A DNA stretch of 64,000 nucleotides from Psammoneis japonica (GCA_008632985.1 QPGO01000242.1:1-64000); one strand, 5' to 3'; numbered from the stretch's first letter, positions 11,190 through 64,000 are shown. Numbers and translations: made by a program. Notes: generated by a model not told the origin, from the letters alone.

Positions 11190-11629
11190 TTCCGTCCGGT
11201 CTTTTCGAGGCTAACTCTTACGGGGCTTACGGGACTTACGGGACGACGCTAAGGGACACTTGCTTCGTAGAGTAATAACAAACATTTTTCTCCTCGGTGG
11301 TGATTTTGATGCCTGAATAGAGAAAGAGCATACTTTTTGTAACAGCAAGAGCCCGAAAATCAAAATAGTTTGCAGCACGCTGCTCAATCAATGCAGAATA
11401 AGCATAGGAGGCAGTGAACTACAACGCGGTGTGGGAGGAGAGCAGGACAGTCCGTTTTCTTATCACCACCTGTGGTGCGACATCGCCCAGAGAACGAATT
11501 CGAAATGCGACTTTGAAATGAACTTTTATGGTGAAGTGCCATCGAAAAAAACTGCAGTAAAGACGATGACTTTCAACTGGAGGCAGCAAATTTAACATGT
11601 CCCACCCAGGATTTCAATGGCACCACATG

Positions 11630-12600
11630 TCAAACCAAGTCGTGCGCGATTGGAGCAAATGTAAAGAGCACATGTACTGCATGGTCTTGAATGCACTTTA
11701 ATGCAATGTTCACAGCCAGGAATGTCTTTCCTGAACCTGCAACTGCTTTGACATGAACTCGTGCCATGTCCCAGATTCCTTTAAGCACTTCCCGTTGGTG
11801 TGGAGTGAGGACTTTTAATTGCAAGATGAGGTCTTCATGATGCACTTTAGCAATTGAAGTGCAATCAAAAGCAATCAGTTCATCACAGTTCAAGAAAAAT
11901 TCAAGTGACAGCAGCTTCCTTGTGGTGTCTTCATTGTCAGCGACAATGAGATTGCAAAGCGTGGTGGAGCAATGAATGTTGCCAAGGCACACCCTGACCT
12001 GCAGAGTGCTGCAATCACTGTGCAACAATGTTGGCATGTGACATGCTTGATTGCCGGGTTTGTTGGTGAAAATTCAAGATTCTCTTGAGTGGTCAGATCT
12101 GGAACACAAAACACCTCTTGATTGCTTGCAACTGGCCAAACAATGCATGTTGTCTCATGCAGCACCAGTGCAACAACATCAGCTCCTGTGGGCTCTTTGT
12201 CAAATTGACAAACATTGGCAACCTCATCAAAGAATTCTTTCAGCTAAAAAAAAACAGTGGCAGTTTCTGCATCACTGGCAACAATGTGTGCAGTGCATTT
12301 GCAGCTGTCTGCAAGTTTTGAAACAGCATCAGCAAGATTGTTTGACTTGCTGAAGTTTCCCTTCTTGAGATTGACCCAAATGACAACCCTCTCTTCTCAA
12401 GTCTCCCTGATGAAGCTGGCAATGTTTTCCACACTGGTGAATTGACATTCTTTGGGTGCAAATCTTGGGTGCACCAAAACTTGCAAATTTCCTTTGCTGT
12501 GGCTCTCTGATGAGAAATGGCAACCTTGCATTCTGCTCATCCTTGATGACCAACTCAGAGCCCAATGGTTTGGACATCACCACATGGATCTTTTGTTCTG
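11630..12600 (-). pseudogene. Degraded P-loop NTPase/helicase-like gene
   Basis: VLTPHQREVL...VKAVAGSGKTFLAV (Q motif plus Walker A). Fragmented frames and TpA depletion. Upstream extent approximate. Confidence 0.6.
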
Positions 12601-14119
12601 CATGGAAACTGTTCAGCCACAGGCCAGCCGATGTGGAGCTTGCAAAGGAGAAATGTCCAAGGCATCAGCTGAGGTCATCGGAGCCAGAGCCACAAAGCTG
12701 GCAGGCTGAGCACACCAACTGCAACCACCAACTGCATTGAATGGCAAACCACCAACTGCACTGAATGGAAAACACCAGCTGCAACATCAGAGGCCACAAC
12801 ACAGTGGTGTTCAATTTTCTTTGTGCAATTTGTGCCAATGAACGTCGCACACATTAATCTTTTATTTTGAGTGCTTGCATCTGACAGCAATTGGCACACT
12901 TCTTTTGAGTGTTGCGCTGCACATCACTGCAAATGAGATTCTCTTCATTTGTGCTCCGAATGTTTCATTCTGAGCAGCGCTTTGTTTGACATTCAGAGCA
13001 AATGAGAGTCAATTGAGGCGACAACACCCACGCAGAGCACAATCAGAGTAAATTTGGTCATTCGGAGCCACAGAATTTTGTTCAGAGCATTGCATTCAGA
13101 GCATTAATTTGCAAATTAGAGCATTGTGCTGACATTCAGAGTGCTGCTGCGATTGTGTCCATTCAATCAGAGCACGACTCTGAACAAAGTTTGGATGCCC
13201 GCGCATCTCCATTTAATTGGAGCACAGCTCTGAGTGAAGTTTGGATGCCTGACGGACAACGAGCTTCTCTGTTTGAACAGATCATGACTCTGAACAAATT
13301 TGTTGATGCTCTGAACAACTGTCATTTAAGAAGCTGTGCTTCGATTAACTCTGTGAACAAACACATCCGCCGAACTCTGACTGTGCCAGTGAAATCAATC
13401 CCAAGCAATTGCACTGCATTGCATTTGTTTGTTGTTGTCATTTTGGGTTATCCTTTGGCGTCAGTTGTTAGATGCAGCTGACATGGCCTTTTGAAAACAC
13501 TGCACACATGGTGCAAACCTGCAATTGCAAGAACCATTCAATGCGTTCATGCAAACCCAAACTGCCTTTCTTTGTCCCACCTTGTAACTGCTTGATCCAA
13601 AAACAACATCGCACTTTTTGCCACAGCACTTTGCAGGGAACAGTGGGTTTGTTTTGAAGCACGCTTGAGCAAAATATTTTCCATCATCTTGATGGACCAA
13701 GGCATGGATCAAGTGAGCCTCCTTGCACTTGCATTGCAAACACAAACAAACAAAAACAATTGGTTTGCGTGCGACAACAAGACAACGCAACAACAGGCAT
13801 GCCAAATCAACAATGACATTTGTTCTGTGCCTGGGAATTGCAAGCAGTTGTTTCATCCGCTTGAGCAACAACAAGGGTTGCAGTTTTGTGTGTGCATTTG
13901 TTCTTTGCTGTCTTTGTCTTTGTTGCAAACAAACAACAAAAGTGAGAGGTGTTTCCAAGAAATTGAGCACAGTCCGCACCACTTCATCATGCATTCTCAC
14001 CGTTTTGTTTTGCAACAGATTTGACAATGGTTTAGAGTGGTTGGCTGGTTGAGTCTGCAAAGAAGTGCCATCATGACACACATTGAATGCCGTTAGATCA
14101 ACTTCTCAATGGCAACCCA

Positions 14120-14680: not shown

Positions 14681-14744
14681 GACCTTTGCATGAAGAATGG
14701 TGGCATGAGAGACATGCAATTCAGCCACATGACACATGACATTT

Positions 14745-17130
14745 TTCTTGCTGGAGGATGATCTTAAAACTCCGGCGATCCAAACGGATCTTGCATCAGT
14801 CGATCAGGCTTTGATCAAACAACTTGCCATCCCAGAACAGGGTGCCAATGCTGACTTCCCTGAACTCCCTGACAACTTCATGGACGAATGGGACGATGCT
14901 GTTGAACCCATGGAACCCGACACTTCCAAACCAGAAGCTGATGAGTGCACCCCGGAGGGGCTTGACGAATGCCTCACAGTTCAAGTCATGTCACCACGTG
15001 GAGGTGAGCTGACCCATGCTGGGGTCATTGCACACAAACGGGATGGTGACGGGGTTCCTGTTGGCACCAGGAATGATGACAACCCTGTCCTGGACTCAAG
15101 GACACACGATGTGGAATTCCCTGATGGATCCACTGACTCCTGTGCTGCTGACGCAATTGCAGAAAATCTGTTCACTCAGATGGACTCTGAAGGCAATGCC
15201 TGCCAGATCATGAAGGAAACAGCTGATCACCGAAGTGATGCCCATGCCGCAAAGGCTGATGACAGGTGCACAACGACCAAGACTGGCAGGCGTGCTCCTG
15301 GGAGGATGACCGCAGGCTGGGACCTGCAAGTTGAATGGAAGGATGGGACTGCATCCTGGGTTCCCCTCAAGGATTTGAAGAAATCTGATCCAGTCGAGGT
15401 TGCTGAGCACGCTGCAGCAAACAAGGCAGCCAACAAACTGGCTTTTAACTGGTGGGTCCAAGACGTCTTGCATCACAGGTTGAGGATCTTAAAGAAAGTC
15501 AAGTCGCATCACTGGAAACGCACGCATGAGTTCAGAATTGAGCTCCCGAAATCTGTCAAGGAAGCTGTGGAGACAGATGACAGAATGGGGGCTGACTTCT
15601 GGTTCAAGGCTGTCAAGAAGGAAGTGTGAAACATCATGCCTGTGTTCAAGTTCCGCGATGACAACACTGTGCCGGTCGGGTGCAAACATGTTGATTGTCA
15701 TGTGATCTTTGACATCAAAAGCACCCTCCAATGTCAAGCAAGGTTCATGGCCAGAGACCATCAGACCAATCCACCCAAGGAATCGACCTGTTCCAGCGTG
15801 GTTTTGCATGATGGCGTTAGGATGGCATTCACCACAGCAGCTCTCAACGACCTGGAGGTCCTGAGTGCCGATGTTCAGAATGCCTGCTTGAACGCACACA
15901 CCAAGGAGAAGTGTTGTGCTGCTGCTGGCCTGGAATTTGGGAAGCACAATGAAGGAAGGCCGGCAATTGTTGTCCGAGCCTCACATGGTCTCAAATCTTC
16001 AGGTGCAAGATTTGGGGAGCCCATGGCTGCTGCTTTGCGCGATGCTGGATTCAAGTCTTGCAAGGCCAACCCAGACGTTTGGATGCAAGCTGCGGTTGAG
16101 CCGGATGGCTTCAAGCACTGGGAACACGCACTTGTTGACATGGACAAGTTGCTGTGTGCCTCACATGAACCTCAAAAGATCATGGATTGCATGAGCTCTG
16201 GATGCACACTCAAGGACGGAAGTGTCTGCAAGCCGGAGGAGCACTTGGGTGCCCAGATCAGAAAGTGCCAGCAGTCTGACTTGGACAGCAAGACACGCTG
16301 GGCCATGTCCTCTGACCTTTGTGTCAAACGGGCATTGGCTGATGTTGAGTTGGAGCTCAAGAAAACTGACAGGCATCTTCCGACAAAGGCGTCAACGCCC
16401 TTGAGCTCGGGACACAGGCCTGAACTGGACGGTTCGCCTGAGTTGAATGCCAAAACGGCCAACTGTCATCAAGGCTTTGTTGGTGTGCTCCGATGGTCAG
16501 TTGAACTGGGGCAAGTGGACATTTTTGTTGCTGTCTCACTCATGTCCTCCTGCTTGGCGGCACCGCGAGTTGGACGTGTTCCAGGTCCAGGTGGGACCTT
16601 GCACCACTGAACTGTGACATCGACAGTTTTTTGAATTGCGTCGCATGTCGCGCGCACAAATTTCTGCGTGATGTTGGCAAAATTTTGTGTGATTTTACAG
16701 TGCAATTGTCAGGCAATCCATTCAACAACTTTTTACATTTTTTCCTTCTGCACCATTCTCGAGTGTCTTGAGAATGGCGCAGGGCAGGCACGCTGTCCAA
16801 AACTTTGAGTGCAAACAGAGATGCATGCACTGCAAACTTGGCCGTTTGTTTTACGTCAAAGATGAATGTGTCCATTGAAAAGAGTGCTAACTGCAGAGCT
16901 CGCACGCAGAATTCTGCAGAGCAAATGTCACAAAAAGTCCCACCTGGGACTGGAACCCATCGTTGGACACCTGGACGAGGTGCTCCACATCTTCACGCAC
17001 TTGAAGGCCCGCTCTGAGTCTGCGCTGGTGTTTGACGACACTGAGCCCATCTTTGATGAGAGTCGTTTTACCAAGTGCAATTGGGAAGAACACTGTCCTG
17101 GTGTGGCTGAGCCGATGCTGCCAAACATGC
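14745..17130 (+). mobile_element. Ty1/Copia (diatom CoDi-like) pol relic: post-integrase region and reverse transcriptase
   Basis: VEFPDGS...IAENLF, GWDLQVEWKDG..SWVPLKDLK, CHVIFDIK, DVQNACLNA, HGLKSSGARF, GVLRWSVELG. Internal TGA stop at 15627; interrupted by a MITE. Confidence 0.93.
16573..16961. mobile_element. 389-bp MITE (family A) inserted in Copia RT, TSD GTTG
   Basis: Imperfect 25-bp TIRs gacgtgttccaggtccaggtgggac / gtcccacctgggactggaacccatc. GTTG at 16569-16572 and 16962-16965. Removal restores APRVGHLDEV. Confidence 0.9.
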
Positions 17131-17930
17131 AATCTGCTTTCTCCTTGCAAGCGTCAATCTTTCGGAACACTCTCTTTGTCTCTTCTGCACATCGCAGTTT
17201 GCAGTTGAGACCGCTGTTGGACGAAAACACGCCAAGATCCAGCAGCTGGTTTTTGTGGCTGTTTTTCAGTCTTCCAGCCTTCCATGCTTGCTTTTGCATG
17301 TCCAGCGAATTTCCAAGTCTTTCTCCATTTTCAATGTGACAATGGGGCACTTTGCAGCTTCCCTCGTGCACCACAAACTGTTTGAGAAGAGAAAACACAG
17401 TCTCCCAATGCTCAGCCAGAATGTCCCACTTGGCTCTGGCCTTCTTCAGTCATTCCTGTTGAGAAGTGTCAAGTTTCCTTTTCCTTGTGGCATCCCGTTG
17501 GTGGCTTGACCATTTTCCAAGGTTCTTCCCATCCTCGTTGTGCCCCCTTGGCATGTTTCTGTGTCCCTCCCGTTTCGTGAATTGCTTGAGAAGAGAGGGC
17601 ATTGTGCCCCATTGATTTTCCCACAAGAGCCGCTCAACACCAGCCTCCTCAAGTTTTTCTTCTTTTTCAATGTTGAGCTTGCCAAGCTTGTGTTTTGTGG
17701 CCATTGGTTGTCCAACCAAATTCCAAGAGCAAAGCCAGCCTCAGCACATTTGTTGGGAACATTGCATCTGCCTTCTCTCTCCAAGCAAACCAAGATCAGG
17801 CTGCAAGCACAACACGGTGCTAATCTCAGCAACACAGCATTGTGGAAATGTGCTCTTTGTGCCAGAGGCATGTGTTTGTGAACAACATGTTTCGCTGGCA
17901 GCACTGCCAACAGATTTTCTCTTTTTTCTT
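17131..17930 (-). pseudogene. Helicase-associated (HA) domain repeat protein relic
   Basis: QWGTMPSLLKQFTKREGHRNMP...LGKWSSHQR and HWETVFSLLKQFVVHEGSCKVP...LG repeats typical of HA domains; internal stops. Confidence 0.8.
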
Positions 17931-18322
17931 TTTTGCATGTTTGTTTTCCTTGAAACGACATGTTTGTTTTCCTTAAAATGACTTGTTTGTTTTCCTTGAA
18001 AGAACATGTTTGTTTTTCTTGAAAGAGCATGTTTGTTTTCCTTGAAAAGACACGCTTGTTTTCCTTGAAAAGACACACTTGTTTTCCTTGCAACAACTTC
18101 TTTGTTTTCCTTTTCCTTGAAACAACATGTTTGTTTTCCTTGAAACAACTTGTTTGTTTTCCTTGAAACAACATGTTTGTTTTCCTTGAAAAGACACGCT
18201 TGCTTTCCCTGAAAGAACATGTTTGTTTTCCCTGAAAGAACATGTTTGTTTTCCTTGAAAGAACATGTCTTGAAAGAACATCCTTGAAAAAACTTGTTTG
18301 TTTTCCCTGAAACAACATGTTT
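17930..18322 (-). repeat. 23-bp satellite array
   Basis: Tandem reverse-complement copies of TTTCAAGGAAAACAAACATGTCG. Confidence 0.95.
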
Positions 18323-18342
18323 GCGAATGAATGCTGACACAC

Positions 18343-21300
18343 TGTCACAAACACAGGCAGTTTGTGTGCCATTGGCAATTGGCAGTGGTCCCAGTGGTGT
18401 GACATCTCACAATTCCAGAACCTGTTGATGCTGTGCAACACTCCATCTTGTCTTGTGCCCAATTCTCAGCTGTCATGGTGGCATTTGTTCACTTTGTCAG
18501 AGCCAATGCACCATGATGTTCATTGCCTGGAATGGGCATCACAAACAGTGCAATGGCATTGTTGCAATTGACCGACTTTTGTGGCAAGCGCCATGCAGGT
18601 CCCATGGTTGCTCGCGCAATCGCTGAGTCCTTTGTGCGCATCAATGTTCATGGATGTGAATGACATGCTCTTGGAGACCAGAGCTGTGATCCGTTGGACA
18701 TGACATTGGTGGACGGAATGTTTGATCATGTGGATGGAATGTGTTGGCTAAGACATGTGAACATTTGTGACAAAGACAACATGATGATTCATGCGTTGAG
18801 GTCTGTCATTTGACCACATGCATTTGATTGATCAAAACACATTGTCAAACTGCTTGGACACTGCACATGTGGACACATGTCTGTTGGAAATTGTTGCTTG
18901 GGAGTGCCGCCGCCTGCTCACGGGTTTGCTGAGTGGAAACCGCCAAATTGGCATGAGAGCCACACATTTTCTCACTTTTCTCCACTCACACAAGTGGATG
19001 CTCACACGTCAAAACGCGAACAACTGCTGATGCACCATGGCCGCTGCCGCAACCTTTGCTGCTTGTCTGATGCATTGTGGATGCAATGCGCAGACGCGCA
19101 CCTGCATGGCCGGTCAAGGCTTTGCCACCACTCAGGACTTGGAACAGGTCCCTTTGGCAGAAATTGCTGCCATGACCAAGGGTGTCATGAAGAGCATGGA
19201 CACCGCCGCCAACCCTCAAGTCTGCTTCCCGTGCCCAGCGAATCGCAAGTTCAAGGCACTGTGTGCATGGATTGACTGCCGCAGGGTCCGGAATCAACAG
19301 CCAACTGCTGCTCTCTTTGCTGGCAATGTTGTTGGGACATGGACGGCGGGTCTCACAGAATTGGAACAATTTAAGTCAGCGGACTCAGACGATGAATCGG
19401 CTGCCAAGACGGCCATGGAACTCAAGAATCTGTGTGACTGGCCTGCCTTCCAAGAGTTGCTGGAGACTGAACTGTGCCACCACTGCAGTGCCGTCACTGG
19501 TGCACCCCTTGTCTGCCCAACCAGGGAGCATGAAGACGTCACTGCCGAAATGTTGGCTGCCACCTGCTCCACCATTGACAAAGACCTCATTGCTGCCACC
19601 CAACCAACAGGAGTGCAGCATGCACAGGATGGGCAATGCCTGCATGATCTTTTGAAGAAGCCAGTGATGGGGGAACCCGGATGGGCTTTTGCCAAACCTT
19701 CCAATCACAATCGCGATGGTCGCACTGCCTTCTTTGCACTTGAGAGGCAGGCGGAAGGATCGGCTGCCACCACCACCCACAAGAGCCGTGCCCATGCACA
19801 GATTGCTGCCGCAAAGCACGCCGGACAGGGTCGTTTTGCTTTTGACCAGTGCATTCAATGCCATCGTGAGGCTCACAACGACTTGTCCGAGCTGCTGTGC
19901 CCCAACCAACTGCAAGCAAATGGACCGACTGTCCATTGCATCCCTCGCCAGTTTGATCCCAACAGCACACACTCTGTTGTTTTCCCTGACTTGAAAATCA
20001 GGGTGCCTTTGTGCATGCAAGGTGTTGCTTTGGTCTTTGACTCACATGAGCCGACTCAGGAGGATCTGGAGAACCTCCCCAGCTGGAGCTCACACCACCC
20101 CTTGGATGGGAACCTTCTGCTGATGCCATGGTGCAAAAGGAGGAAGAGTGCGCATGTGCCAGTTTGCACCAAGGATCAGTGAAGTCTGACGGACAGTCGA
20201 CAATGATGAATGTGACCAGGTGTGTCACTTCAACTCATTTGTGTCAGACATCCCATCATGATGAGACGCCAATGGCAATGATTCTCTGCATCACTGCTTG
20301 GTTGCTCAGGCAAATGTCTCTCACAACGACATTGAGGGAGACGGGCCACATGACCGGCACAATCCAGACGTCCACCCGGATTGTGCTGAGCGGAAAAGGG
20401 TGCATGCACTGTCAACCTTGAGTCGTGCATCAACTGTCATGCCCAAGATGCTCTCCAAGAGGTGGAACATTGGCCTGATGGCCGCCAAGAACACCCTCAG
20501 AGTGACAACCCAGGCAGGGGTCCGCAACATCCACACGCCATCCAAATGGAAAGTCCAGAAGAAAGCCCCTTGGCTTGAGTTCCCTGCTGTCAAGGGATGC
20601 TTCCACTCAGACCAAATGTTTTTGAAGGTCAAATTGATGCATGGCAAGATGGGAGGAAGCATGTTTGCCAACGAAAGAGGGTGTGATGGGTTCCATCCTT
20701 GGAAGAGAGAGCAGGACCACCCAATGCCTTCATGTCATTCATGCATGACATTGGCGTGCTGCAAGTCCTTGTGTCGGATGGTGCACCAGAAATGGCAGAA
20801 GGCCAGACCAAGGACATTTGCAAGGAACACAGGATGCACCAGGAGGTGTCCACCCCATGCAGCCCCTGGCAGAACCTGGCCGAGGCATCCATTTGTGAGT
20901 TGAAGAAGAGAGTCCGCATGACTCTACGCCGGACTGGCGCTCACAGGCAACTTTGGTCCTGCAGTGCCAAATGGACATGCGACATCCAACGCATGATTGA
21001 GGCTGGCATTTTGGATGTGGGAGGATGAGTCCCAGAAGAAGAGGTGACAGGTTCAACACCTGACATCTCATCCCTCTCTCTCTCTTTGATTGGTGTCAAC
21101 CTGTTTGCTGTTGCACGCCTGTGGTGGAGTTCCCACACAAGAAGAAGTGCATTGGCCATTGGCTCGGAGCAGCTGACAACTGCACTGACGACATGGCATT
21201 TGTCATCCTGCCTGAATCAGGCAGACCCATCATTTGGAAAGATGTGTGGGCCATGCCAGAGGATGATCTTAAAACTCTGGCGATCCAAGCGGATCTTGCA

Positions 21301-22060
21301 TCAGTCAATCAGGCTTTGATCGAATGACTTGCCATCCCGGAACAGGGTGCCAATGCTGACTTCCCTGAACTCCCTGATGACTTCATGGACGAATGGGGCG
21401 ATGCTGTTGAACCCGTGGAACCCGATGCTCCCAAACCAGAAGCTGATGAGTGCACCCCGGAGGGGCTTGACGAATGCCTCACAGTTCAAGTCATGTTGCC
21501 ACGTGGAGGTGAGCTGACCCATGCTGGGGTCATTGCACACAAACGGGATGGTGATGGGGCTCCTGTTGGCACCAGGAATGACAACCCTGTCCTGCACTCA
21601 AGGACACACGACGTGGAATTCCCTGATGGATCCACTGACTCCTGTGCTGCCGGTGCAATTGCAGGAAATCCATTCACTCAGACAGACTCTGAAGGCAATG
21701 CCTGCCAGATCATGAAGGAAACAGTCGACCACCAAAGTGATGCCCGTGCCACAAAGGCTGATGACGGGTGCACAACGACTGAGACTGGCAGGCGTGCTCC
21801 TGGGAGGACGACCGCAGGCTGGGACCTGCAAGTTGAATGGAAGGGTGGGACCACATCCTGGGTTTCCCTCAAGGATTTGAAGGAATCTGATCCAGTCAAG
21901 GTTGCTGAGCATGCTGCAGCAAACAAGGCAGCCAGTGAACCAGCTTTTTTAACTGGTGGGTCCAAGACATCTTGCGTTGCAGGTCAAGGATCTTAAAGAA
22001 AGTCAAGTTGCATTGCTGGAGACGCATGCACAAGTTCGGAGCTGAGCTCCTGAAATCTGT
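18343..22060 (+). mobile_element. Copia relic: putative 5' LTR (~18343-18780), gag, internal deletion, integrase and downstream region
   Basis: tgtcacaaa at 18343 and tttgtgaca ending 18772. Gag-like ORF from 19037 (RDGRTAFFALERQAEG). Integrase motifs LSKRWNIGL, VLVSDGAPEM, TPCSPWQNLAEASI. LTR limits tentative. Confidence 0.85.
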
Positions 22061-22069
22061 CAAAGAACT

Positions 22070-22778
22070 GTTCATTCCTCCTTCTGAGGTTTCTCGTGGG
22101 TGCTGCGTCCAAACTGCATGCCTGTGTTGGCAGCAGGTGGCTCATCTGACTCTTTGGAGTCCTTTGTCCATCAGCAGGTTGAGGCTCAGCAACAGCCGCC
22201 CTTTTCACAGTGTGAGTGTCAGCGTCGACCAACTCAGCCTCCAAGGATGCCTCTGCTGCTTTGCATTTCTTCCCAGCTTTCTTGGCCTCATTGAGCTTCT
22301 CAACTTGCTCTTGCTCAGGACCATCAAGAGCACTCCACTCTTAAGTGGGGCAATGGCCTGCCTGGATCCTGGGCTTGTCCTTTTCAGGTTGGTGCTTGCC
22401 CTCAGAGTTTCTGCGACGGCTGTTGTGGCATTGGACGGATGCGGCCATGCGAGCATCAGCGTTGTGGTTCTTGGCATTCTCCACCAGAATCTTTGCATGC
22501 TGATGGCATGCTTTGAAATCTGCTGGCTTCATCGGATCTCCATCCACTGTGCTCTCACCAGTCTCCAACCCAGGGTCGGAGACACCCTCGATAAAGTCAG
22601 AGACCTTCTTGGTCTCAGCCACCGGCTCATCGAGCTCAGACAAGTCATTGCAAGCCTTCTGATGGCATTGGATGCACTGGTCAAAAGCAAAACAACTCCG
22701 GTGCACTTTGCGGTGGCAATCTGTGCATGGGCACGGTTCTTGTGGGTGGTGGCAGCAGCCGATCCTTCCGCCTGCCCA
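22070..22778 (-). mobile_element. Copia gag C-terminal fragment
   Basis: FDQCIQCHQKACNDLSELDEPVAETKKVSDFIEGVSDP; homologous to 29870-30566. Confidence 0.85.
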
Positions 22779-23290
22779 CATGTCTTTTCAAGCAAAACAA
22801 ACATGTCTTTTCAAGGAAAACAAACATGTCTTTTCAAGAAAAACAAGCGTGTCTTTTCAAGAAAAACAAACATGTCATTTCAAGGAAAACAAACAAGTCT
22901 TTTCAAGGAAAACAAACATGTCATTTCAAGGAAAACAAACATGTCGTTTCAAGGAAAACAAACATGTCTTTTCAAGGAAAACAAACATGTTGTTTCAAGG
23001 AAAACAAACATGTCGTTTCAAGGAGAACAAACATGTCTTTTAAAGGAAAACACACATGTCGTTTCAAGGAAAACAAACATGTCGTTTCAAGCAAAACAAA
23101 CATGTTGTTTTAACGAAAACAAACATGTGTTTTTAAGAAAAACAAACATGTCTTTTCAAGGAAAACAAACATGTTGTTTCAAGGAAAACAAATGTGTCGT
23201 TTCAAGGAAAACAAATGTGTTCTTTCAAGGAAAACAAACATGTCATTTCAAGGAAAACAAACATGTCGTTTCAAGGAAAACAAACATGCA
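22778..23290 (+). repeat. 23-bp satellite array
   Basis: Tandem TTTCAAGGAAAACAAACATGTCN. Confidence 0.95.
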
Positions 23291-26045: not shown

Positions 26046-26347
26046 CATGTTGTTTCAAAAAAAAATGTCATTTCAAGGAAAACAAACATGTTGTTTCAAA
26101 GAAAACAAACATGTCTTTTCAAGGAAAACAAACATGTCATTTCAAGGAAAACAAACATGTCGTTTCAAGGAAAACAAACATGTCGTTTCAAGGAAAACAA
26201 ACATGTTGTTTCAAAGAAAACAAACATGTCTTTTCAAGGCAAACAAACATGTCGTTTCAAGGAAAACAAACATGTCATTTCAAGGAGAAAACAAACATGT
26301 CGTTTCAAGGAAAACAAACACGTCGTTTCAAGGAAAACAAACATGTC
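26045..26347 (+). repeat. 23-bp satellite array
   Basis: Tandem copies of the same unit. Confidence 0.95.
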
Positions 26348-30500: not shown

Positions 30501-30566
30501 GGCGGCAATCTGTGCATGGGCATGGCTCTTGTGGGTGGTGGCAGCAGCTGATCCTTCCGCCTGCCC
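27555..30566 (-). mobile_element. Mosaic of Copia protease, RT, integrase and gag fragments with embedded satellite (27965-28520)
   Basis: LDSRADACAVG and LDLRTDACAVGSNF (protease), TPLSSGHRPELDGSPEL (RT), LSKRWNIGL (integrase), gag C-terminus. Confidence 0.85.
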
Positions 30567-41540: not shown

Positions 41541-41558
41541 TGCTGTGAAAAGATCAAG

Positions 41559-53300: not shown

Positions 53301-53850
53301 TTGTGTTGCAATTTCTGCAGCTGAGTCTTCTGCGTGCCGATGGGAGCCATGCAATGTCCCAGAGTTTTGTGGGGAGTGCAAGCTGACAATTGCTTGCTGC
53401 AACGTGAAGTGGAACGGTCGGCGGAAAAAATCTCCACCTCGATGTCGTCGTGATGAGGTCGAACACACGGTTCGCCGCATTCGGCAAAATCCCATTCGAT
53501 GGCGTGGAAAGAACACTTCGGCAACTCCAGTTCATGTCCAGCTGCGTCCAGTGAGTCACACCACAACTGGCCATCTGATTGAAGTGCCTGAGACAGCTCG
53601 AGTGCTGAGGGCTGAGGGCTTGCTCTAAAGTCGTTCACCTGCTTAGACGCATCATCAACACAACCTCTGTTGTGTGCGCGGATGTAAAACTGTCCATCCG
53701 GAGTTTCGAAAAATGAGCCGATGGCTTCTGCGTCAAAGATGTCAAACAGTCTGCTGCACAGAGTGTTCCAGTGCCAGGGAGAGTTGCCGCTGCCTTGTCC
53801 TGTTCCATGCAACGGGCACTCGGGGGAATGAGAGTGACTTTTTCGGGCCA
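50388..53850 (-). mobile_element. 5'-truncated non-LTR retrotransposon with RT, RNase H, C-terminal zinc knuckle and 3' end (resembles diatom Ambal-type LINEs)
   Basis: PLHGTGQGSGNSP, GCVDD, LELPKC (RT); SDCSV...RAEACG...IHCDNKALV...SDWDV...WVKGHQD...NIRAD (RNase H); CIAC...EDRDHVLRC. Clade assignment is from recall, not a search. Confidence 0.9.
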
Positions 53851-53865
53851 AGGAAAACAAACATG

Positions 53866-54680
53866 GCAGAGGTGCTGGCGGGAACTTTGGGAAGAGCACA
53901 ACAAGTTGGTTCACGGGCACGATGTTGATTCTTGGAAATCATCTCAACAGAGGAAGGCGGAAGCCAAACTGACGGCGACATGCAACAAATGACAAGAATG
54001 CTTGGCGAAGGACAGAGGCGCATTGCTGGATTTGGTCAAAGAACAACTGTCATTTTCAACAACGAGGATCCAAAGCTGGATCTCTGTGGTCCGTCCAAGA
54101 CCAAAACACAGCCTGAAAGAAGCCAAACGACTGGCAAAAAGCGGCGCTTGCGCCATTTGCAGCTGTCTCCGTCGGGCGCCCTCCAATGGGGGCGCCAAAA
54201 CCGGCCAACTGCACCACATTTCTGCCGCATCCTCTGCAGGGTGCGCTGGAAGTGTGGGTTGGCCGGCGCCGGTGTTGCTGGGCAAAGGTGCAATGGCACT
54301 TGAAATTGGGGTTTGGTTTTTTTTTGGTCTCAAGCCTTGCGGGCCACACAAGATGAGCCAACTTGTGTTTCAGCTGCGCCCACATTTGACAATGTGACCC
54401 GCGCTGCTCTCTGTTCAGCGGCGAGCAACTGTTTGGTGAGAAAGGTCTAGCCAGGGAGAACACAGGTCATCAAGGAGAGATGACGTGCACGGCAGCATCT
54501 CCATGGTTCCACATGATCATGTCAACAAGATCAAAGGAAAAGAGCTGTTGCTCTTGTGTCAGAGTTTCTTCAACTGAGTCCTCTGGGTGCCAACTGGAGC
54601 CAAGCATTGTCTGAGGGTTTTGTGCGGAGCACAAGCTGAGAGTTGAGTGCCAGAGCGGGGCTTGAGCCTGTCTGCAAGTT
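53866..54680. mobile_element. Further non-LTR fragments: C-terminus/3' end (+, to ~54325) and RT piece (-)
   Basis: CWRELWEEHNKLVHGHDV matches 50761-50850 in opposite orientation; 54330-54680 matches 25500-25840. Confidence 0.8.
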
Positions 54681-54724: not shown

Positions 54725-54965
54725 GGTGTTTGTTTTCCTTGAAAAGACACGTTTGTTTTCCTTGAAATGACACGCTTGTTTTCCCTGAAACGACGTGTTT
54801 GTTTTCTTTGAAATGACACGTTTGTTTTCCTTGAAAAGACATGTTTGTTTTCCTTGAAAACACATGTTTGTTTTCCTTGAAACAACATGTTTGTTTTCCT
54901 TGAAAAGACATTTTTTCCCCTTGAAACGACATGTTTGTTTTCCTTGAAAAGACGTGTTTGTTTTC
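54725..54965 (-). repeat. 23-bp satellite array
   Basis: Tandem units. Confidence 0.93.
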
Positions 54966-57900
54966 ACCAATCAAAGAGAGAGAGGGAAGAGATGTCGGGT
55001 GTTGAACCTGTCACCTCCTCTTCTGGGACTCATCCTCCCATGTCTGACACACTGGCTGCAATCATGCGTCGGATGTCAAATGTCCATTTGGCGCTGTGGG
55101 ACCAAAGTCGTCTGTGAGCGCCAGTCCAGTGCAGAGTCACACGGACTCTTTTCTTCAACTCACGAATGGATGCCTCGGCCAGGTTCTGCCAGGGGCTGCA
55201 TGGAGTGGACACCTCCTGGTGCATCCTGCACTCCTTGCAGATCTCCTTGGTCTGGCCGTCTGCCATTTCCAGTGCGCCATCTGACACAAGGACCTGCGGT
55301 GTGCCAACGTCATGCACAAATGACATGACGGCATCTGGGTGGTCCTGTTTCCTCTTCCAAGGATGGAGCCTGTCACACCCTCTTCCGTTGGCAAGTGCGC
55401 TTCCTCCCATCTTTCCATGTGTCGATTTGACCTTTGAAAACATCTGGTCGGAGCAGAGTTGTCCCTTGACAGCAGGGAACTTGAGCCAAGGGGCTTTCTT
55501 CCGGACTTTCCGTTTGGATGGTGTGCAGACATTGCGGACCCCTGCCTGGGTCATCACTCTGATGGTGTTCTCAGCAGCCGTCAGGCCAATGTCCCACCTT
55601 TTAGAGAGTGTCTCGGGTGTGACAGTTGATGCACAACTCAAGGTCGACAGCGCATGCACCCGTTTCCGATCGGCACAATCCAGGTGGACATCCAGGTCAT
55701 GCCGGTCATGTGGCCCATCTCCCTCGGTGTCGTTGTGGGAGACACTCACCTGAGCAACCATGCGGCGATGCAATGAATTGTTGTCATCAGTGTCCACAAT
55801 GACGCTCTTGTCATGACAGGACATTTGGTGTGAATGAATGGAAGCAACACACCTGGCCACATTCATTGTCGTCGACCATCCGCCCGACTTTGCTGGTCCT
55901 TGGCGCACACTGGCACATGCACGCACTTCCTCCTTTTGCGCCATGGCATCAGCAGAAGGCTCCCATCTCGGGGGTGATGTGAGTTCCAGCCAGGGGAGGT
56001 TCTCCAGATCCTCATTTGTTGGCTCGTGTGAATCAAAGAGAGAAGCAACGCCTCTTGTTCGCAGCGGCACCCTGATCTTCAAGTCAGGGAAAGCAATGGA
56101 GTGCGCGCCAGTCGGATCAAACTGGCAAGGGGTGTCGTGGACAATCAGCCCATTTGCTCACAGTTGGTTGGGGCACAGAAGGGTGTTGGTCATCGTGTCC
56201 CAAAAAAACATGGCCTCGTGGACTGGCAGCAAGCGCGGTTGTCCATCAGTTGGATCAACCCACACGGCAGCAGCCGTGCAAACAGGAGTGTTTTCCATTG
56301 GCGCGTGCTCTTCGGAGTGGGGGTGCACCACGGCAGTTCTGGCAATGTCAGAGCACATCACAAAATTGGACCCAACAGCACATGTGTCAGCGTGCGAGTC
56401 TAAATCAGTGGTGGCTTCATCATCTGAATTTCCAGCAGATGACAGAGAGACACGCACTTCCTTTGAGAATCACCCAGACAAACAAACAGTGCCAGCAGGT
56501 TTAGCGACATTCGGCTCTGTGCCTTTCAGTGCTGGCGCAACTGTTCGCTCCTCATTCTGACGTTTCTCATGTGCGCTGCATCCAAACTGGGTGCCTGCAT
56601 TGGCGGCAGGTTCGCCAGGCTCGTCGGAGTCTTTCGGCACATCAGCAGGTTGAGCAGCAGGCTCGGCAACAGCCGCTTTCTTTGCAGCGCGAGTTTTGGC
56701 ATCGACCGACTCAGCTTCCAAGGACACAGCAGCAGCTTTGCATTTCTTTTTGGCCCAATTGGCGTCGCGGAGCTTTTGGACTTGCTCTCACTCGGGACCA
56801 TCAAGAGCACTCCGGTCGGAGATGCCCTTCAGAAAGTCAGAGACCTTCTTGGTCTCGGCCACCAGTTCATCAAGCTCAGACAAGTCGTTGTGAGCCTTTT
56901 GACGACGCTGAATGTGCTGGTCAAATGCAAATCAACCCCATCCGGTGCACTTCGCGGCAGCAATCTGTGCATGAGCACAGCTCTTTTGGGTGGTGGCGGC
57001 AGCTGATCCTTCCGCCTGCCTCTCAAGTGCAAAGAAAGCAGTGCGACCATCGCGGCTGCGATTGGAAGGTTTGACAAAAGCCCACCCGGGCCCCCCCATC
57101 ACTGACTTCTTCAGGAGATCATGCAGTCGTTGCCTGTCCTGTGCATGCTGAGCGCCCGCAAGGTGGGTGGCAGCAATGAGGTCCTCGTCAATGGCAGCGC
57201 AGGTGGCAGCCAAAACTCTGGACAGATGAGGGGAACTCCGGCGACGGTGCTGCGGTGGCGGCGCAGTTCGGTCTCCAGCAACTCTTGGAAGGTGGGCCAG
57301 TTGTGTGGGTTCTTGAGCTCCACAGCCGTTTTGGCAGCCAATTCGTCGTCCGAGTCGGTGGACTTGAATTGCTCCAGTTCCATCAGACGTGCCGCCCATG
57401 TTCCAACAACATCGCCAGCGAAGAGAGCAGCGGTCGGCTGTTGGCTCCGGGCTCTGCGGCAGTCAATCCATGCACGCAGTGCCTTGAGCTTTCGATTTGC
57501 CAGGTGTGGAAAGCGGGCTTGAGGGCTGGCAGCGGCACCCACGCTTTTCATGGTGCCCTTCGTCGTGTCGGCAATTTCAGTCAAAGGGACCTGCTCCAGG
57601 TCCCAAACAGCAGTGAAGCCTTGACGGGCCATGTGGGTGCGCGTCTGTGCACTGTGCCCACAACGCGCAAGACAGGCAGCAATGGCTGCAGCAGCAGCCA
57701 TGGTGCATCAGCAGTTGTTTGCATTTCGATGCGCGAGCATCCGCTTGTGTGAGTGGAGGAAAGTGAGAAAAATGCATGGCTCTCGTGCCGATTTGGCAGT
57801 TTCTGCTTGGCAAACCCATGAGCAGGCGGCGTTGCCCCCAAGCGACAATGTCCAACAGACATGCATCCACGTGTGCAGCATCCAAACAATTTGATGATGC

Positions 57901-58957: not shown

Positions 58958-61460
58958 CTTGAAAACACACATTTGTTTTCCTTGAAACAACATGATTGTT
59001 TTCCTTGAAATGGCGTGTTTGTTTTCTTTGAAACGACGTGTTTGTTTTCCTTGAAACGACATGTTTGTTTTCCTTGAAAAGACATGTTTGTTTTCCTTGA
59101 AACCACATGTTTGTTTTCCTTAAAATGGCGCGTTTGTTTTCTTTGAAACGACATGTTTGTTTTCATTAAAAAGACATGTTTGTTTTCTTTGAAACGAAAT
59201 GTTTGTTTTCCTTGAAAAGACATGTTTGTTTTCCTTGAAAAGACATGTTTGTTTTCTTTGAAACGACATGTTTGTTTTCCTTGAAACGACATGTTTGTTT
59301 TGGTTGAAAAGACATGTTTGATTTCCTTGAAACAACATGTTTGTTTTCCTTGAAAAGACACATTTGTTTTCCTTGAAACAACATGTTTGTTTTCCTTGAA
59401 ACGACATGTTTGTTTTCCTTGAAACCACATGTTTGTTTTCCTTGAAATGACACGTTTGTTTTCCTTGAAATGACACGCTTGTTTTCATTAAAAAGACATG
59501 TTTGTTTTCTTTGAAACGAAATGTTTGTTTTCCTTGAAAAGACATGTTTGTTTTCCTTGAAAAGACATGTTTGTTTTCTTTGAAACCACATGTTTTTTTT
59601 CCTTGAAACGACATGTTTGTTTTCATTGAAAAGACATGTTTGATTTCCTTGAAACGACATGTTTGTTTTCCTTGAAACGACATGTTTGTGTTCCTTGAAA
59701 AGACACATTTGTTTTCCTTGAAACAACATGTTTGTTTTCCTTGAAACGACATGTTTGTTTTCCTTGAAAAGACACATTTGTTTTCCTTGAAACAACATGT
59801 TTGTTTTCCTTGAAATGGCATGTTTGTTTTCCTTGAAATGACATTGTTCCAGGCGATGAACATCACAGCGCACTGGCTCTGACAAAGCGACCAAATGCCA
59901 CCATGATGGCTGAGAATTGGGTGCAAGACAAGATGGAGTGTTGAGCAGCATCAGCAGGTTCTAGAATTGTGAGATGTTGCGCCATTGGGGCCGCTGATCA
60001 AGCAACAGTGAACCAATCGCCAACAGCACACAAACTGCCTGTGTTTGTGACAGCACATCAGCATTTGTTCAAAACGACATGTTTGTTTTCCTTGAAACAA
60101 CATGTTTGTTTTCAATGAAAAGACACGCTTGTTTTCCTTGAAAAGACACATTTGTTTTCCTTGAAATGACATGTTTGTTTTCCTTGAAACGACATGTTTG
60201 TTTTCCTTGAAAAGACATGTTTGTTTTCAAAACATGTTTGGTTTCCTTGAAACCACACGTTTGTTTTCCTTGAAAACACATGTTTGTTTTCATTGAAAAG
60301 ACGTGTTTGATTTCCTTGAAACGACAAGTTTGTTTTCCTTGAAATGACACGTTTGTTTTCCTTGAAACGACATGTTTGTTTTCATTAAAAAGACATGTTT
60401 GTTTTCTTTGAAACGAAATGTTTGTTTTCCTTGAAAAGACATGTTTGTTTTCCTTGAAAAGACATGTTTGTTTTCTTTGAAACCACATGTTTTTTTTCCT
60501 TGAAACGACATGTTTGTTTTCATTGAAAAGACATGTTTGATTTCCTTGAAACGACATGTTTGTTTTCCTTGAAACGACATGTTTGTGTTCCTTGAAAAGA
60601 CACATTTGTTTTCCGTGAAACAACATGTTTGTTTTCCTTGAAACGACATGTTTGTTTTCCGTGAAAAGACACATTTGTTTTCCTTGAAACAACATGTTTG
60701 TTTTCCTTGAAATGGCACGTTTGTTTTCCTTGAAATGACATGTTTGTTTTCAAGAAACAACGTGTTTGTTTTCCTCGAAACAACATGTTTGTTTTCCTTG
60801 AAAAGACATGTTTGTTTTCCTTGAAACATGCATTTTCAAGGAAAACAAATGTGTTGTTTCAAGGAAAACAAACACGTCTTTTCAAGGAAAACAAACATGT
60901 TGTTTCAAGGAAAACAAACACGTGGTTTCAAAAAAAACAAACATGTCTTTTCAAGGAGCGAGAATGGCGTAGAAGAAAAAAATGTCAAAAGTTGATCAAT
61001 GCATGGCCTGACAATTGCGCTGTAAAATCACACAAAATTTTGCCACAGTCACGCAGAAATGTGCGCGCGCGACACACGACGCGATTCAAAAAACTGTGGA
61101 TGTCACAGTTCAGCAGTGCGAGGTCCCACCTGGACCTGGAACGCATCTGTCGTTTCAAGGAAAACAAATGTGTGTTTTCAAGGAAAACAAACATGTCGTT
61201 TCAAGGAAAACAAACACGCCATTTCAAGGAAAACAAACATGTTGTTTCAAGGAAAACAAGTTTGTCTTTTCAAGGAAAACAAACATGTCGTTTCAAGGAA
61301 AACAAGCACATTGTTTCAAGGAAAACAAATGTGTCTTTTCAAGGAAAACAAACATGTCGTTTCAAGGAAAACAAACATGTCTTTTTCAATGAAAACAAGC
61401 GTGTCTTTTCAATGAAAACAAACATGTCGTTTCAAGGAAAACAAACATGTGGTTTCAAAG
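58958..61460. repeat. 23-bp satellite arrays with an LTR fragment (59845-60070), orientation switch at ~60825 and truncated family A MITE (60958-61148)
   Basis: Tandem units on minus then plus strand; inserts match 35410-35630 and 38879-39068. Confidence 0.92.
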
Positions 61461-62820
61461 AGCGCCGGACTGGCGCTCACAGACGACTTTGGTCCCACAG
61501 TGCCAAATGGACATGTGACATCCGACGCATGATTGCGACCAGTGTGTCAGACGTGGGAGGACGAGTCCCAGAAGAGGAGGTGACAGGTTCAACACCCGAC
61601 ATCTCTTCCCTCTCTCTCTTTGATTGGCGTCAACCTGTGCATTGCTGCGTGCCTGTGGTGGAGTTCCCACATGAAAAGGAGCGCGTTGGCCGTTGGCTTG
61701 GCGCAGCTGACAACTGCGCTGACGAAATGGCATTCATTGTTTTGCCCGAATCAGGCAAACCCATCATTCAGAAGGATGTGTGGGCCATGCCGGAGGAAAA
61801 CCTTAAAACTCCTGTGATCCAGACGGATCTTGCATCGGTCGATCAAGCTTTGATCGCCAGTGCTGACTTCCCTGAACTCCCTGACGACTTCATGGACGAA
61901 CAGGACGACGCCATTAAACCTGTGGAACCCGACGCTTCCAAACCGGAAGCTGATGAGCACACCCTGGAAGGGCTGGATGAATGTCTCACAGCTCAAGTCA
62001 TGTCACCACGAGGAGGTGAGCTGACTCATGCTGGGGTCATTGCACACAAGTGAGATGGTGACGGGGTTCCTGTTGGCACTGGGAACGACTTGAGGACATG
62101 CGACGTGGAATTCCCTGACGGATCCACCGACTCCCATGCTGCTGACACAATTGCAGAGAACCCATTCACTCAGATCGACTCTGAAGGGAATGCCCGCCAG
62201 ATCATGAAGGAAACAGTCGATCACTGACGTGATGCCCATTGCAGTGTGCATGCAGACAAAAGGTTGTTTTTGTCATGACCTTTGTGACATTTAAATTGCA
62301 GCACGTCGCCGTGATGCATTGGCTCTTGTCAGCAGCTGCACACTGCACTCCTCCCCATGTGTCACGCGTCCATGCGGCTCTTTGCTGACGTGCACTGACA
62401 CTGCACGGTTTTGGTGGAACAGTGTGGGTGCGTGCGAAGGAACACACAGAACTGCACAGAGTTTTGCACGTTCGACAGTGATCAACGTTGCTGCAGACAA
62501 CTCCCACTCAGGGTTTCGAACCCCTGGCCTCCTGCCCAATGGTTGCGATGAACCACTCCGCCAAAAATTCATGATGCAGCATGCATGCAGACAAAAGGTT
62601 GTTTTGTCACAACCTTTGTGACATTTAAATTGCAGCACGTTGCTGTGATGCATCAACTCTCATTGGCAGCTGCACATTGCACCGTGCTGCAACGGCCAAT
62701 GACGGGTGCACAACGACCAAGACTGGCAGGCATGCTCATGGGAGGACGACTGAAGGCTGGGACCTGCAAGCAGAGTGGAAGGATGGGACTGCATCCTGGG
62801 TTCCTCTCAAGGATTTGAAG
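61461..62820 (+). mobile_element. Copia integrase C-terminal region interrupted by a TRIM
   Basis: GRVPEEEVTGSTPDIS...GRWLGAADNCADEMAF...GWDLQAEWKDGTASWVPLKDLK. Confidence 0.9.
62240..62681 (-). mobile_element. 442-bp TRIM (miniature LTR retrotransposon)
   Basis: Two ~108-bp TG...CA direct repeats (62240-62347, 62575-62681); PPT GGGGAGGAG (62356-62348); TSD CCAT/CCGT; empty site at ~15240 and ~21745. Confidence 0.88.
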
Positions 62821-64000
62821 TCAAAGAAAACAAACACGTCTTTTCAAGGAAAACAAACGCATCATTTCAAGGAAAACAAACACGCGGTTTCAAGCAAAAC
62901 AAACACATGGTTTCAAGGAAAACAAACATGTCTTTTCAAGGAAAACAAATGTGTTGTTTCAAGAAAAACAAATGTGTGTTTTCAAGGAAAACAAACATGT
63001 GGTTTCCAGGAAAGCAAACATGTCGTTTCATGGAAAAGAAGCATGTCCATTCAAAGAAAACAAACACGTCTTTTCAAGGAAAACAAACGTGTCTTTTCAA
63101 GGAAAACAAACGTGTTGTTTCAAGGAAAACAAACGTGTTGTTTCAAGGAAAACAAACATGTTTTTTCAAGGAAAACAAACATGTCTTTTCAAGGAAAACA
63201 AATGTGTTGTTTCAGGGAAAACAAACATGTGGTTTCAGAGAAAACAAACATGTGTTTTCAAGGAAAACAAACATGTCGTTTCAAGAAAAACAAACGTGTC
63301 GTTTCAAAGAAAACAAACATGTCTTTTCAAGGAAAACAAACGTGTCTTTTCAAGGAAAACAAACGTGTTGCTTCAGGGAAAACAAACATGTTGTTTGAAG
63401 ACAAACATGTTGTTTCAAAGAAAACAAACACATCTTTTCAAGGAAAACAAACGAGTCGTTTCAAGAAAAACAAACGTGTCGTTTCAAGGAAAACAAACAC
63501 ATCTTTTCAAAGAAAGCCAAGGTGTCATTTCATGAAAAACAAACATGTGGTTTCAAGGAAAACAAACATGTCTTTTCAAGGAAAACAAACATGTCTTTTC
63601 AAGGAAAACAAACATGTCGTTTCAAGGAAAACAAACATGTCTTTTCAGAGAAAACAAACGTGTCATTTCAAGAAAAACAAACATGTCGTTTCAAGGAAAA
63701 CAGACATGTCTTGAAAACAAACATGTCGTTTCAAGGAAAACAAACATGCGTTTTCAAGGAAAACAAACATGTCGTTTCAAGGAAAACAAACATGTTGTTT
63801 CAAGGAAAACAAACATGTGTTTTCAAGGAAAACAAACATGTGGTTTCAAAGAAAGCAAACATGTCGTTTCATGGAAAACAAGCATGTCTTTTCAAAGAAA
63901 ACAAACAAGTCTTTTCAAGGAAAACAAACGTGTCTTTTCAAGGAAAACAAACGTGTCATTTCAAGGAAAACAAGCGTGTCTTTTCAAGGAAAACAAACAT
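62820..64000 (+). repeat. 23-bp satellite array running off the window end
   Basis: Tandem units. Confidence 0.97.

Follow-up and report, generated by a model that had tools for sequence, protein, structure and literature searches.

The window analysed here is a stretch of 64 kb from the pennate diatom Psammoneis japonica (QPGO01000242.1:1-64000), in which an island of genes with a normal content of the dinucleotide TpA is flanked by repeat-rich DNA from which TpA has nearly vanished. The depletion ends at sharp borders on both sides of the island, has a clear polarity from TpA towards TpG and CpA, affects both strands equally, struck different copies of the same elements independently, and is also present in contigs built from sequencing reads. 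Very probably, it reflects a TpA-specific A:T-to-G:C hypermutation that acted at the DNA level on silenced, repeat-rich chromatin and was accompanied by a decay of CpG. Hypermutation of this type, i.e. TpA-only changes of T/A to C/G, is reported in the text of a preprint on the chlorarachniophyte Bigelowiella natans (Mettrop et al., bioRxiv 10.64898/2026.01.13.699255).

Depletion of TpA and CpG around a gene island

Observed/expected (o/e) ratios of dinucleotides were scanned over this one window in 1-kb steps. The gene island (1614-11848) contained 427 TA, equivalent to 41.7 per kb and a TpA o/e of 0.59, a usual level for a diatom-like genome. In the depleted zones on its two sides (1-1613 and 11849-64000), only 156 TA were counted, equivalent to 2.98 per kb, a TpA frequency of 0.003, and an o/e of 0.04. 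About 93% of the expected TpA was gone. TAs of the island followed each other at a median distance of 16 bp, with a maximum gap of 248 bp, and the longest run of the depleted zone free of TA and N measured 1869 bp (30251-32120). The depletion was regional, beside a normally evolving island, and sharp at 1613/1614 and 11848/11849: dense TA began at 1614 on the left, whereas, on the right, the final dense TA was found at 11848 and the next TAs at 12245 and 12855.

CpG was low in the depleted DNA as well, with an o/e of 0.56 compared with 0.97 in the island, such that about 43% of the expected CpG was gone. Conversely, TG and CA were each raised to an o/e of about 1.65. The losses and gains relative to the island were nearly equal, as TA and CG together lost 0.0615 of all dinucleotides and TG and CA together gained 0.0621. 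The loss of CpG alone amounted to 0.0229, i.e. about one third of the TG/CA gain. All other dinucleotides shifted by at most 0.021 between the island and the depleted zones. The G+C content of the depleted zones remained flat at 0.469, compared with 0.470 in the island, and, among the dinucleotides composed of A and T only, TA was the only one that was lost. Inside the depleted zone, the TpA and CpG o/e values were weakly correlated (Spearman 0.28, p 0.052).

An earlier, sequence-only reading of this DNA had described its repeats as nearly devoid of TpA, and the details on which it was built could be reproduced. The recounts gave exactly 4 TA in 14701-16620 and 4 TA in 9841-9870 within PRP19. 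Tyr was indeed absent from the two open reading frames (ORFs) of a Copia element (14733-15626, 298 aa, and 15630-16607, 326 aa), and all eight quoted peptide motifs were located, at 15870, 15984, 16464, and 20852 on the plus strand and at 55183, 34565, 34676, 53792, and 53651 on the minus strand. Its account of the TpA loss stood, whereas the accompanying decay of CpG had been missed.

Tyrosine codons and the polarity of the changes

Judging from homology, the main mutated elements are Ty1/Copia retrotransposons with an RVT_2-type reverse transcriptase (RT) and an integrase upstream of it. The RT ORF at 15630-16607 had 5462 relatives in a phmmer search (best E 1.4e-96), and these relatives carry PF07727. 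A direct Pfam score for RVT_2 was only E 1.5e-3, due to the mutational damage to the ORF. The partners in tblastn searches were Copia polyproteins of 1300-1400 aa, which were aligned over residues 625-1287.

The polarity was determined with 32 intact Copia polyproteins, from which 18 non-overlapping tblastn alignments covering 3039 aa were obtained. At the 96 sites at which the homologue has Tyr, the window encoded Cys 35 times, His 32 times, and Tyr not once; the Cys and His codons were TGC (23), TGT (12), CAC (19), and CAT (13). The conversion of TAY codons to TGY or CAY by A-to-G transitions at TpA, as claimed by the sequence-only reading, was therefore borne out at 67 of 96 sites, with zero Tyr kept. 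The other residues were mostly retained at 31-75%, with lower values for Ile (19%) and Met (15%). At 12 columns, at least 60% of 56 intact homologues have Tyr; here, the window had seven His, three Cys, one Trp, and one Asp, whereas the intact pool had 88% Tyr, 0.3% Cys, and 1.5% His.

The signature extended across codon borders, as changes from TpA to TpG/CpA predict. When the first base of a codon had changed from A to G (I>V, M>V, T>A, N>D, and K>E, homologue codon versus window codon), T preceded it in 69 of 110 cases, compared with 210 of 478 controls (Fisher p 4.5e-4). Codons that had kept their initial A followed a T just twice in 205 cases, and a C 102 times.

The TpA content of intact relatives was the comparison on which the idea of hypermutation had been staked from the start, and the idea survived it: all 80 of 80 metagenomic Copia loci were TpA-normal, with o/e values of 0.52-0.98. 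These were the best 80 of 442 loci and all of the intact type, as hypermutated relatives score lower. Similarly, 144 of the best 150 representative homologues had an ordinary Tyr content. The other six (P0135, P0203, P0231, P0263, P0217, and P0254, from Logan, JGI/IMG, and ENA) were Tyr-free or Tyr-poor Copia RT proteins with Cys or His at the Tyr columns, e.g. at 10 of 12 columns in P0135 and at 10 of 11 in P0203. They were about 40% identical to the window RT, and they show that the footprint is present beyond this assembly. When the RT ORF was used in a word-indexed search for homologues, 117 new proteins were retrieved, including one of Fragilaria crotonensis with 45% identity, and none of them was Tyr-poor.

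Mutation of both strands and of separate copies

The two strands were affected equally. This was true for the replacements of Tyr (35 Cys versus 32 His) and for the dinucleotides (5392 TG versus 5289 CA), and the TG-CA skew, taken over 100 bp, had a variance of 1.36 in the island and in the depleted zones alike. At 200 bp and above, the clustering of TG and CA by strand, a possible sign of processive events on one strand, showed a modest excess over the island, which stemmed largely from satellites. The depletion was equal in a 23-bp satellite, a 243-bp tandem repeat, a LINE-like (long interspersed nuclear element) sequence, Copia elements, and a repeat-free flank. Because the satellite, the tandem repeat, and the flank were depleted like the retroelements, editing of an RNA intermediate cannot be the cause.

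At shared Tyr sites, pairs of copies disagreed in having Cys or His in 10 of 32 comparisons with P0122 as the reference, and in 5 of 16 with P0127. Furthermore, old copy pairs, which are 78% and 83% identical, differed by TG versus CA at 37 and 41 dinucleotides, respectively. To judge from these sequence comparisons, the copies were mutated independently of one another.

The order of events could be deduced from duplicates that are 98.7% identical. They had 48 differences, 25 of which were CG versus TG/CA and 3 of which involved TA. As the differences were mostly at CG and hardly at TA, the TpA loss was complete before the duplication took place, while the decay of CpG continued. Given an island-like ancestor, the survival of 7% of the TpA and 57% of the CpG would correspond to a per-site rate about fivefold higher for TpA than for CpG.

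Survival of TpA depended on the sequence context. The surviving fraction reached 0.38 in TTAA and about 0.2 in CTAA/TTAG, whereas ATAT, ATAG, ATAC, and GTAC were nearly extinct at about 0.01 (0.007 in the case of ATAT). Accordingly, 51 of the 156 surviving TAs were found in TTAA and 32 in CTAA/TTAG. Part of the TTAA excess arose because the satellite makes new TA, as 14 of 380 monomers had changed from TTGAA to TTAAA. The survival of TTAA thus indicates either a poor substrate or recent G>A changes in the TTGAA of the satellite. Positions 9-10 of the same 380 monomers were occupied by TG (304), CG (39), CA (28), and TA (0), variants that are consistent with an ongoing purging of TA and give no polarity.

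Contigs built from sequencing reads

Three sequencing runs (X1, X2, and X3) of one sample and one study were used. Two Logan contigs of X1 (contigs 5 and 6) extended over the right border; the first covered 9413-12254 with 1 difference in 2842 nt, the second 12246-12814 with 0 differences. A presence of TA in read-derived sequence had been named beforehand as a sign against hypermutation; instead, the X1 contigs reproduced the depleted sequence across the border at 11848. The X1 contig on the island (1500-7629) deviated from the window by 8 letters and 9 gaps in 6137 nt, which shows that it was reconstructed separately and does not simply repeat the assembly. Its differences could represent allelic variation of a diploid, or differences in assembly or consensus.

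Of 707 differences between contigs and window, the 40 best supported were inspected. They comprised 28 in the depleted zones, 3 of which would create a TA and many of which were alternations of CpG, TpG, and CpA. By type, the X1 differences were 162 A>G, 139 T>C, 138 G>A, and 146 C>T, whereas most transversions occurred 13-20 times and C>G 5 times. X2 covered almost nothing of the depleted zone, and nothing about expression can be concluded from it.

A proposed TpA-specific mutator and its alternatives

We propose that the 1.6 kb to the left and the 52 kb to the right of the island are repeat-rich DNA that is probably silenced and methylated. A mutator would act on this DNA, on both strands, and would convert the A:T pairs of TpA to G:C, nearly to saturation, and a slower decay of CpG to TpG/CpA would proceed in the same DNA. 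The context-specific activity would be aimed at silenced or foreign chromatin and not at duplication as such, as in B. natans. It would wreck the coding capacity via the replacement of Tyr by Cys or His, via ATA, TTA, CTA, and GTA codons, and via TAs that span two codons. TATA boxes, AATAAA, and other signals that contain TA should be lost to it as well. Such a process would presumably serve as genome defence.

The leading candidate for the catalyst is a polynucleotide adenosine deaminase that acts on DNA and converts A to inosine, which is read as G; we hold this assignment to be quite possible, with a little less than even confidence. ADAT/TadA-type enzymes act on A34 of tRNA after the invariant U33, and this is why a deaminase is appealing. 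More tentatively, a chromatin-guided editor of DNA with strict specificity for TpA, which would deaminate adenine or else modify thymine, could be an old defence that is shared by Stramenopila and Rhizaria, and perhaps by the wider group of stramenopiles, alveolates, and Rhizaria (SAR). The editor would have swept TpA from apparent (peri)centromeric heterochromatin of satellites and retroelements, and would represent an A:T-side counterpart of repeat-induced point mutation (RIP) and APOBEC.

Several points weigh against a targeted mutator of TpA. The material is one 64-kb window, and an association with repeats, methylation, or chromatin across the genome is a prediction. The evidence consists of the footprint, and any catalyst, de novo event, or inosine behind it is hypothetical. 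No intact element closer than 59% amino acid identity was found among the best 80 of 442 loci, so that the polarity was established at the protein level and not base by base. A-to-G changes outside TpA are limited solely by the dinucleotide balances and could have occurred. The reads are from a single sample, probably that of the assembly itself, and their platform is not on record. Concordant Cys/His outcomes in copy pairs outnumber the discordant ones by 22 to 10 with P0122 as the reference; this exceeds a 1:1 expectation, and therefore either some of the mutations predate the copying or the context biases the strand. In addition, the TG-versus-CA mismatches between copies may stem from ancestral CpG. 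Finally, kinship with the process in B. natans is an assumption that is drawn from the signature alone.

A true analogue of RIP, in which the sensing of duplication (homology) triggers the mutator and slight spill into the flanks occurs, is an unlikely explanation that nevertheless has to be taken seriously. The depleted and repeat-rich zones nearly coincide: repeats detected within the window account for 78% of 12901-64000 and for 0% of the island. However, they also cover 0% of 11849-12900, and about 1 kb of that flank (11849-12814) was depleted of TpA and CpG without a repeat that was detectable in the intra-window search. The bin 12001-13000 contained 3 TA only and had a CpG o/e of 0.16. 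The word depth of the X1 contigs over 9413-12814 was 61-66, the same as for island contigs. The view of the sequence-only reading that the mutations are restricted to repeats was thus largely correct, but too strict. The depletion of 11849-12814 may be a spill-over, an old diverged element, or a sign that the chromatin state defines the target. Segmental duplicates with 98.7% and 99.8% identity are present in the zone and have no TA left with which homology sensing could be tested. A further argument against it is that the main target in B. natans is single-copy (Mettrop et al.). We favour a target that would be defined by the chromatin state rather than by duplication.

We consider it rather improbable that the chemistry took place at thymine, i.e. 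that thymine at TpA in heterochromatin was modified, by a TET/JBP-type dioxygenase or in another way, to 5-hydroxymethyluracil (5hmU) or 5-formyluracil (5fU), which would mispair with G during replication and lead to T-to-C changes. 5fU mispairs with G, and the 5hmU of dinoflagellates prefers TpA. Because TpA is palindromic, A>G and T>C were indistinguishable in all counts. Moreover, CpG with 5-methylcytosine (5mC) and TpA both are a 5-methylpyrimidine before a purine, although this is a similarity of pattern only. The T of TpG is likewise a 5-methylpyrimidine before a purine, but it was not visibly lost, as TG rose. No feature of the window speaks specifically for thymine chemistry.

Error-prone patch repair, one of two sources suggested by the sequence-only reading, is very improbable. 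According to this explanation, T:G mismatches from 5mC deamination would be processed by mismatch repair with a Pol eta-like polymerase, which introduces A-to-G changes at WA (W, A or T), the hotspot of Pol eta. CpG decay and TpA loss indeed occurred in the same DNA and shifted together at the borders. However, a WA signature predicts a loss of AA and a gain of AG, whereas AA rose from 0.085 to 0.097 and AG fell from 0.066 to 0.055 in the depleted zones. Also, the loss of 93% of TpA compared with about 43% of CpG would demand far more TpA than CpG events, and the more than 50-fold range between contexts (TTAA versus ATAT) resembles the specificity of an enzyme.

We give hardly any credence to a technical artefact, a standing modification read as G/C, or a native TA-free composition under selection. 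The reads from one sample and the lack of a platform record leave some room for the first. Yet the Logan contigs, as a separate reconstruction, agree with the window across the border, the Tyr-to-Cys/His footprint recurs in 6 public proteins that are unrelated and stem from three sources, a single round of replication turns any modification pairing as G into a mutation, and the TpA of the relatives is normal. A miscall of a modified base of the type known from Oxford Nanopore Technologies (ONT) sequencing was rejected together with this explanation. Selection for the avoidance of TA was discarded in view of the broken elements, the loss of catalytic Tyr, and the TpA-normal relatives; broken elements without catalytic Tyr also make an adaptive recoding implausible. 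GC-biased gene conversion was excluded by the unchanged G+C content and by the exclusive loss of TA among the AT-only dinucleotides.

Least credible of all is an ADAR-like A-to-I hyperediting of retroelement transcripts that was fixed by reverse transcription: although Copia and LINE-like elements are numerous among the affected sequences and a U before the edited A fits ADAR-type editing according to the text of bioRxiv 10.64898/2026.01.13.699255, the strands were hit equally, short-range strand clustering was barely above that of the island, and the depletion of satellite, tandem repeats, and repeat-free flank was the same, with borders that were regional and not bound to elements.

Elements and genes in the window

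Copia was represented in the depleted DNA by eight groups of broken fragments in tblastn searches. Copy A (14868-17276, +) is a degenerate pol fragment with integrase, RT, and RNase H, which was 51% identical to P0122 (566 bits). High-scoring segment pairs of tblastn defined a gag-pol fragment (copy B, 19886-22067, +), broken fragments (copy C, 27557-29754, -), a gag-integrase fragment (copy G, 54856-56424, -), and an integrase-RT fragment (copy H, 61463-62820, +). A C-terminal fragment with RNase H (34223-34768, -) was 64% identical to P0233 and contains the motifs ETATCGS and THCVDANLCH. Two gag fragments detected by tblastn (40867-41232 and 45497-45862, both -) lie inside a segmental duplication of 3.8 kb (39069-42892 and 43721-47522), which is 98.7% identical in a pairwise comparison of the copies.

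The ORF at 52304-53938 (-) is a candidate for a degenerate RT of the non-LTR (long terminal repeat) type, with the motifs PLHGTGQG and GCVDD. Its nearest ESM Atlas clusters were RVT_1 (score 0.95) and contained Oomycota and Bacillariophyta; a Pfam search yielded no match at E 0.01, and the assignment as a non-LTR RT is regarded as a lead only. ORFs with a helicase-associated (HA) domain (PF03457) were found at 16931-17449 (-), 24668-25609 (+), and 31464-32156 (+), with Pfam E values of 3.9e-9, 1.7e-6, and 5.5e-7. Two of them sit in a pair of 1.9-kb duplicates (24414-26347 and 31211-33152) that are 93% identical. When 135 stop-to-stop ORFs from the depleted zones were searched with Pfam, the matches other than HA domains were limited to weak RVT_2 and low-complexity ones.

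The 23-bp satellite formed at least 17 arrays, which were strewn among the Copia fragments across the whole depleted zone. According to Tandem Repeats Finder, the largest array is located at 35635-37585 and has a GC content of 32% and 4 TA per kb. Further arrays were found in the left part of the zone (17936-18323, 22778-23288, 26057-26347, 27964-28306, 30567-31010, and 32899-33222), in the middle (38192-38875, 40276-40800, 43370-43919, 44906-45430, and 49344-50387), and in the right part (54727-54965, 58958-60827, 61148-61458, and 62821-64000). X1 contigs resembling 17343-18676 reached a summed word depth of about 94,000-126,000, compared with about 57 for the island, a value that is not a copy number but attests to the great abundance of the satellite unit in X1. 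The region is a candidate for (peri)centromeric heterochromatin. The X3 run was tiny; its listed contigs of 48-77 nt lie on a satellite array and cover only 17343-18676 (window 17945-18256). Their sizes would fit a small-RNA library.

To the left of the island, the TpA-depleted repeat block (1-1613) has 5 TA in 1613 bp, resembles many X1 contigs, and includes the 243-bp tandem repeat (1019-1577, Tandem Repeats Finder). The island itself encodes a PDZ protein (2018-3796, +), a HAD_SAK_2 protein (5628-6188, +), and PRP19 (9378-11189, +), all assigned by Pfam. The best matches of PRP19 were pennate diatoms with 45-49% identity, a low value which indicates that the host is a diatom without a close relative in the searched database. 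X2, which is labelled 'DNA?', gave contigs on the island that look spliced. One of them omits two GT..AG intervals, 4368-4450 (83 nt) and 4589-4668 (80 nt), in the style of a spliced transcript, and both are introns of a gene around 3657-5380 (+). A fragment of a helicase-like P-loop ORF (11630-12073, -), with weak matches to PhoH, ResIII, and DEAD (E 2e-5 to 2.5e-3), spans the right border; its P-loop part is in DNA with normal TA and its N-terminal part in depleted DNA.

Implications

RIP, AID/APOBEC, and the decay of 5mC all act on cytosine, and, to our knowledge, hardly any mutator has been described that is targeted to A:T pairs of cellular DNA. A saturated footprint in a second, distant lineage means that TpA hypermutation is not the oddity of one species, and it widens the target range to retrotransposons and satellite DNA. 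With two lineages available, comparative genomics can be used to find the enzyme, and diatoms are amenable to genetic work. If the editor is indeed shared, the comparison of footprint-positive and footprint-negative diatoms against B. natans would identify it. A natural DNA adenine editor that works in a double-strand context would be of interest for base editing.

The loss of TpA also has a practical consequence, as it removes stop codons. TAA fell from 10.3 to 1.65 per kb and TAG from 7.2 to 0.5 per kb, such that TGA is nearly the sole stop codon left. Due to this loss, many long false ORFs arise in depleted regions. Counted from stop to stop, 111 ORFs of 150 aa or more are present in the window, and the majority of them lie in the depleted zone, where they overlap on the two strands. 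Gene prediction will yield false proteins there, and Tyr-free 'proteins' are already present in public databases.

Comparison with known systems

The RIP of Neurospora and other fungi is the functional analogue and is similar in that DNA-level transitions ruin repeated or foreign DNA regionally, with sharp borders next to genes. However, RIP changes C to T mostly at CpA, raises TpA, and lowers GC, whereas in the window TpA is erased (o/e 0.04), CpA and TpG are raised to about 1.65, and GC is unchanged. The statement of the sequence-only reading that the process runs opposite to RIP therefore holds. The contrast extends to stop codons, which RIP creates and the diatom process removes in the case of TAA and TAG. 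RIP is further characterised by duplicated sequence as its trigger, by the enzymes RID and DIM-2, and by its timing in the sexual cycle. Deamination of 5mC is present as a second component and cannot remove TpA. The footprints of ADAR and APOBEC in animal retroelements are likewise context-dependent, deaminase-type hypermutation in integrated copies, but they are strand-specific, depend on RNA or cDNA intermediates, and are confined to retroelements, whereas here both strands and also non-retroelement DNA are affected.

A biochemical precedent for deamination of DNA is provided by ADAT2/ADAT3, which are not known to cause TpA-specific genome-wide hypermutation. According to PMC10354150, BjADAT2 of amphioxus, an enzyme of the ADAT2/ADAT3 type, is a tRNA adenosine deaminase that is able to deaminate DNA bases. 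Stramenopile deaminases with fused SAM and Tudor domains, or with a fused Rossmann domain, are described in the text of Iyer et al. 2011 (PMC3239186). These fusion proteins and paralogues of ADAT2/3 are candidates for the enzyme, as leads only.

The closest counterpart is the hypermutation of B. natans, and the statement that no system of this kind had been described is outdated by the preprint of Mettrop et al. (bioRxiv 10.64898/2026.01.13.699255). According to its text, 231 of 302 nuclear mutations in mutation-accumulation lines fell into two hypermutable regions, an integrated giant-virus region and a virophage region. Of these 231 single-nucleotide mutations, 230 were A>G or T>C and occurred without exception at TpA, at a rate per site and generation of about 6e-7. 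Most affected was a single-copy, transcriptionally silent target, and RT and DDE domains were over-represented among TpA-poor coding sequences. The authors proposed an ADAT2-like deaminase and cited ADAT2 of Trypanosoma as an enzyme with DNA-deaminating activity.

Both systems convert TpA to TpG/CpA on either strand with a bias towards GC, affect certain silent or foreign regions while the DNA next to them mutates normally (the silence of the diatom zone being an inferred property), and leave a long-term footprint of lower TpA and higher CpA plus TpG. They differ in the host, a chlorarachniophyte (Rhizaria) in one case and a pennate diatom (Stramenopila) in the other, and in the targets, which are inserts of giant viruses and virophages in B. 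natans and Copia, LINE-like, satellite, and flanking DNA in the window. De novo mutations were observed in B. natans, whereas the diatom window offers the footprint alone. Unlike B. natans, the window shows a clear decay of CpG alongside. According to the preprint's text, the region of nucleocytoplasmic large DNA virus (NCLDV) origin in B. natans keeps 3.3% TpA (rho 0.45), compared with 0.003 and an o/e of 0.04 here.

In view of that preprint, the finding in the diatom is not categorically new. The preprint's text, supplements not covered, names neither diatoms nor stramenopiles, and our literature search, which had subscription journals outside its scope, retrieved TpA hypermutation from this preprint only and not from any diatom. 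As far as these searches reach, the P. japonica window is the first sign of TpA hypermutation in diatoms, and an extreme example of it.

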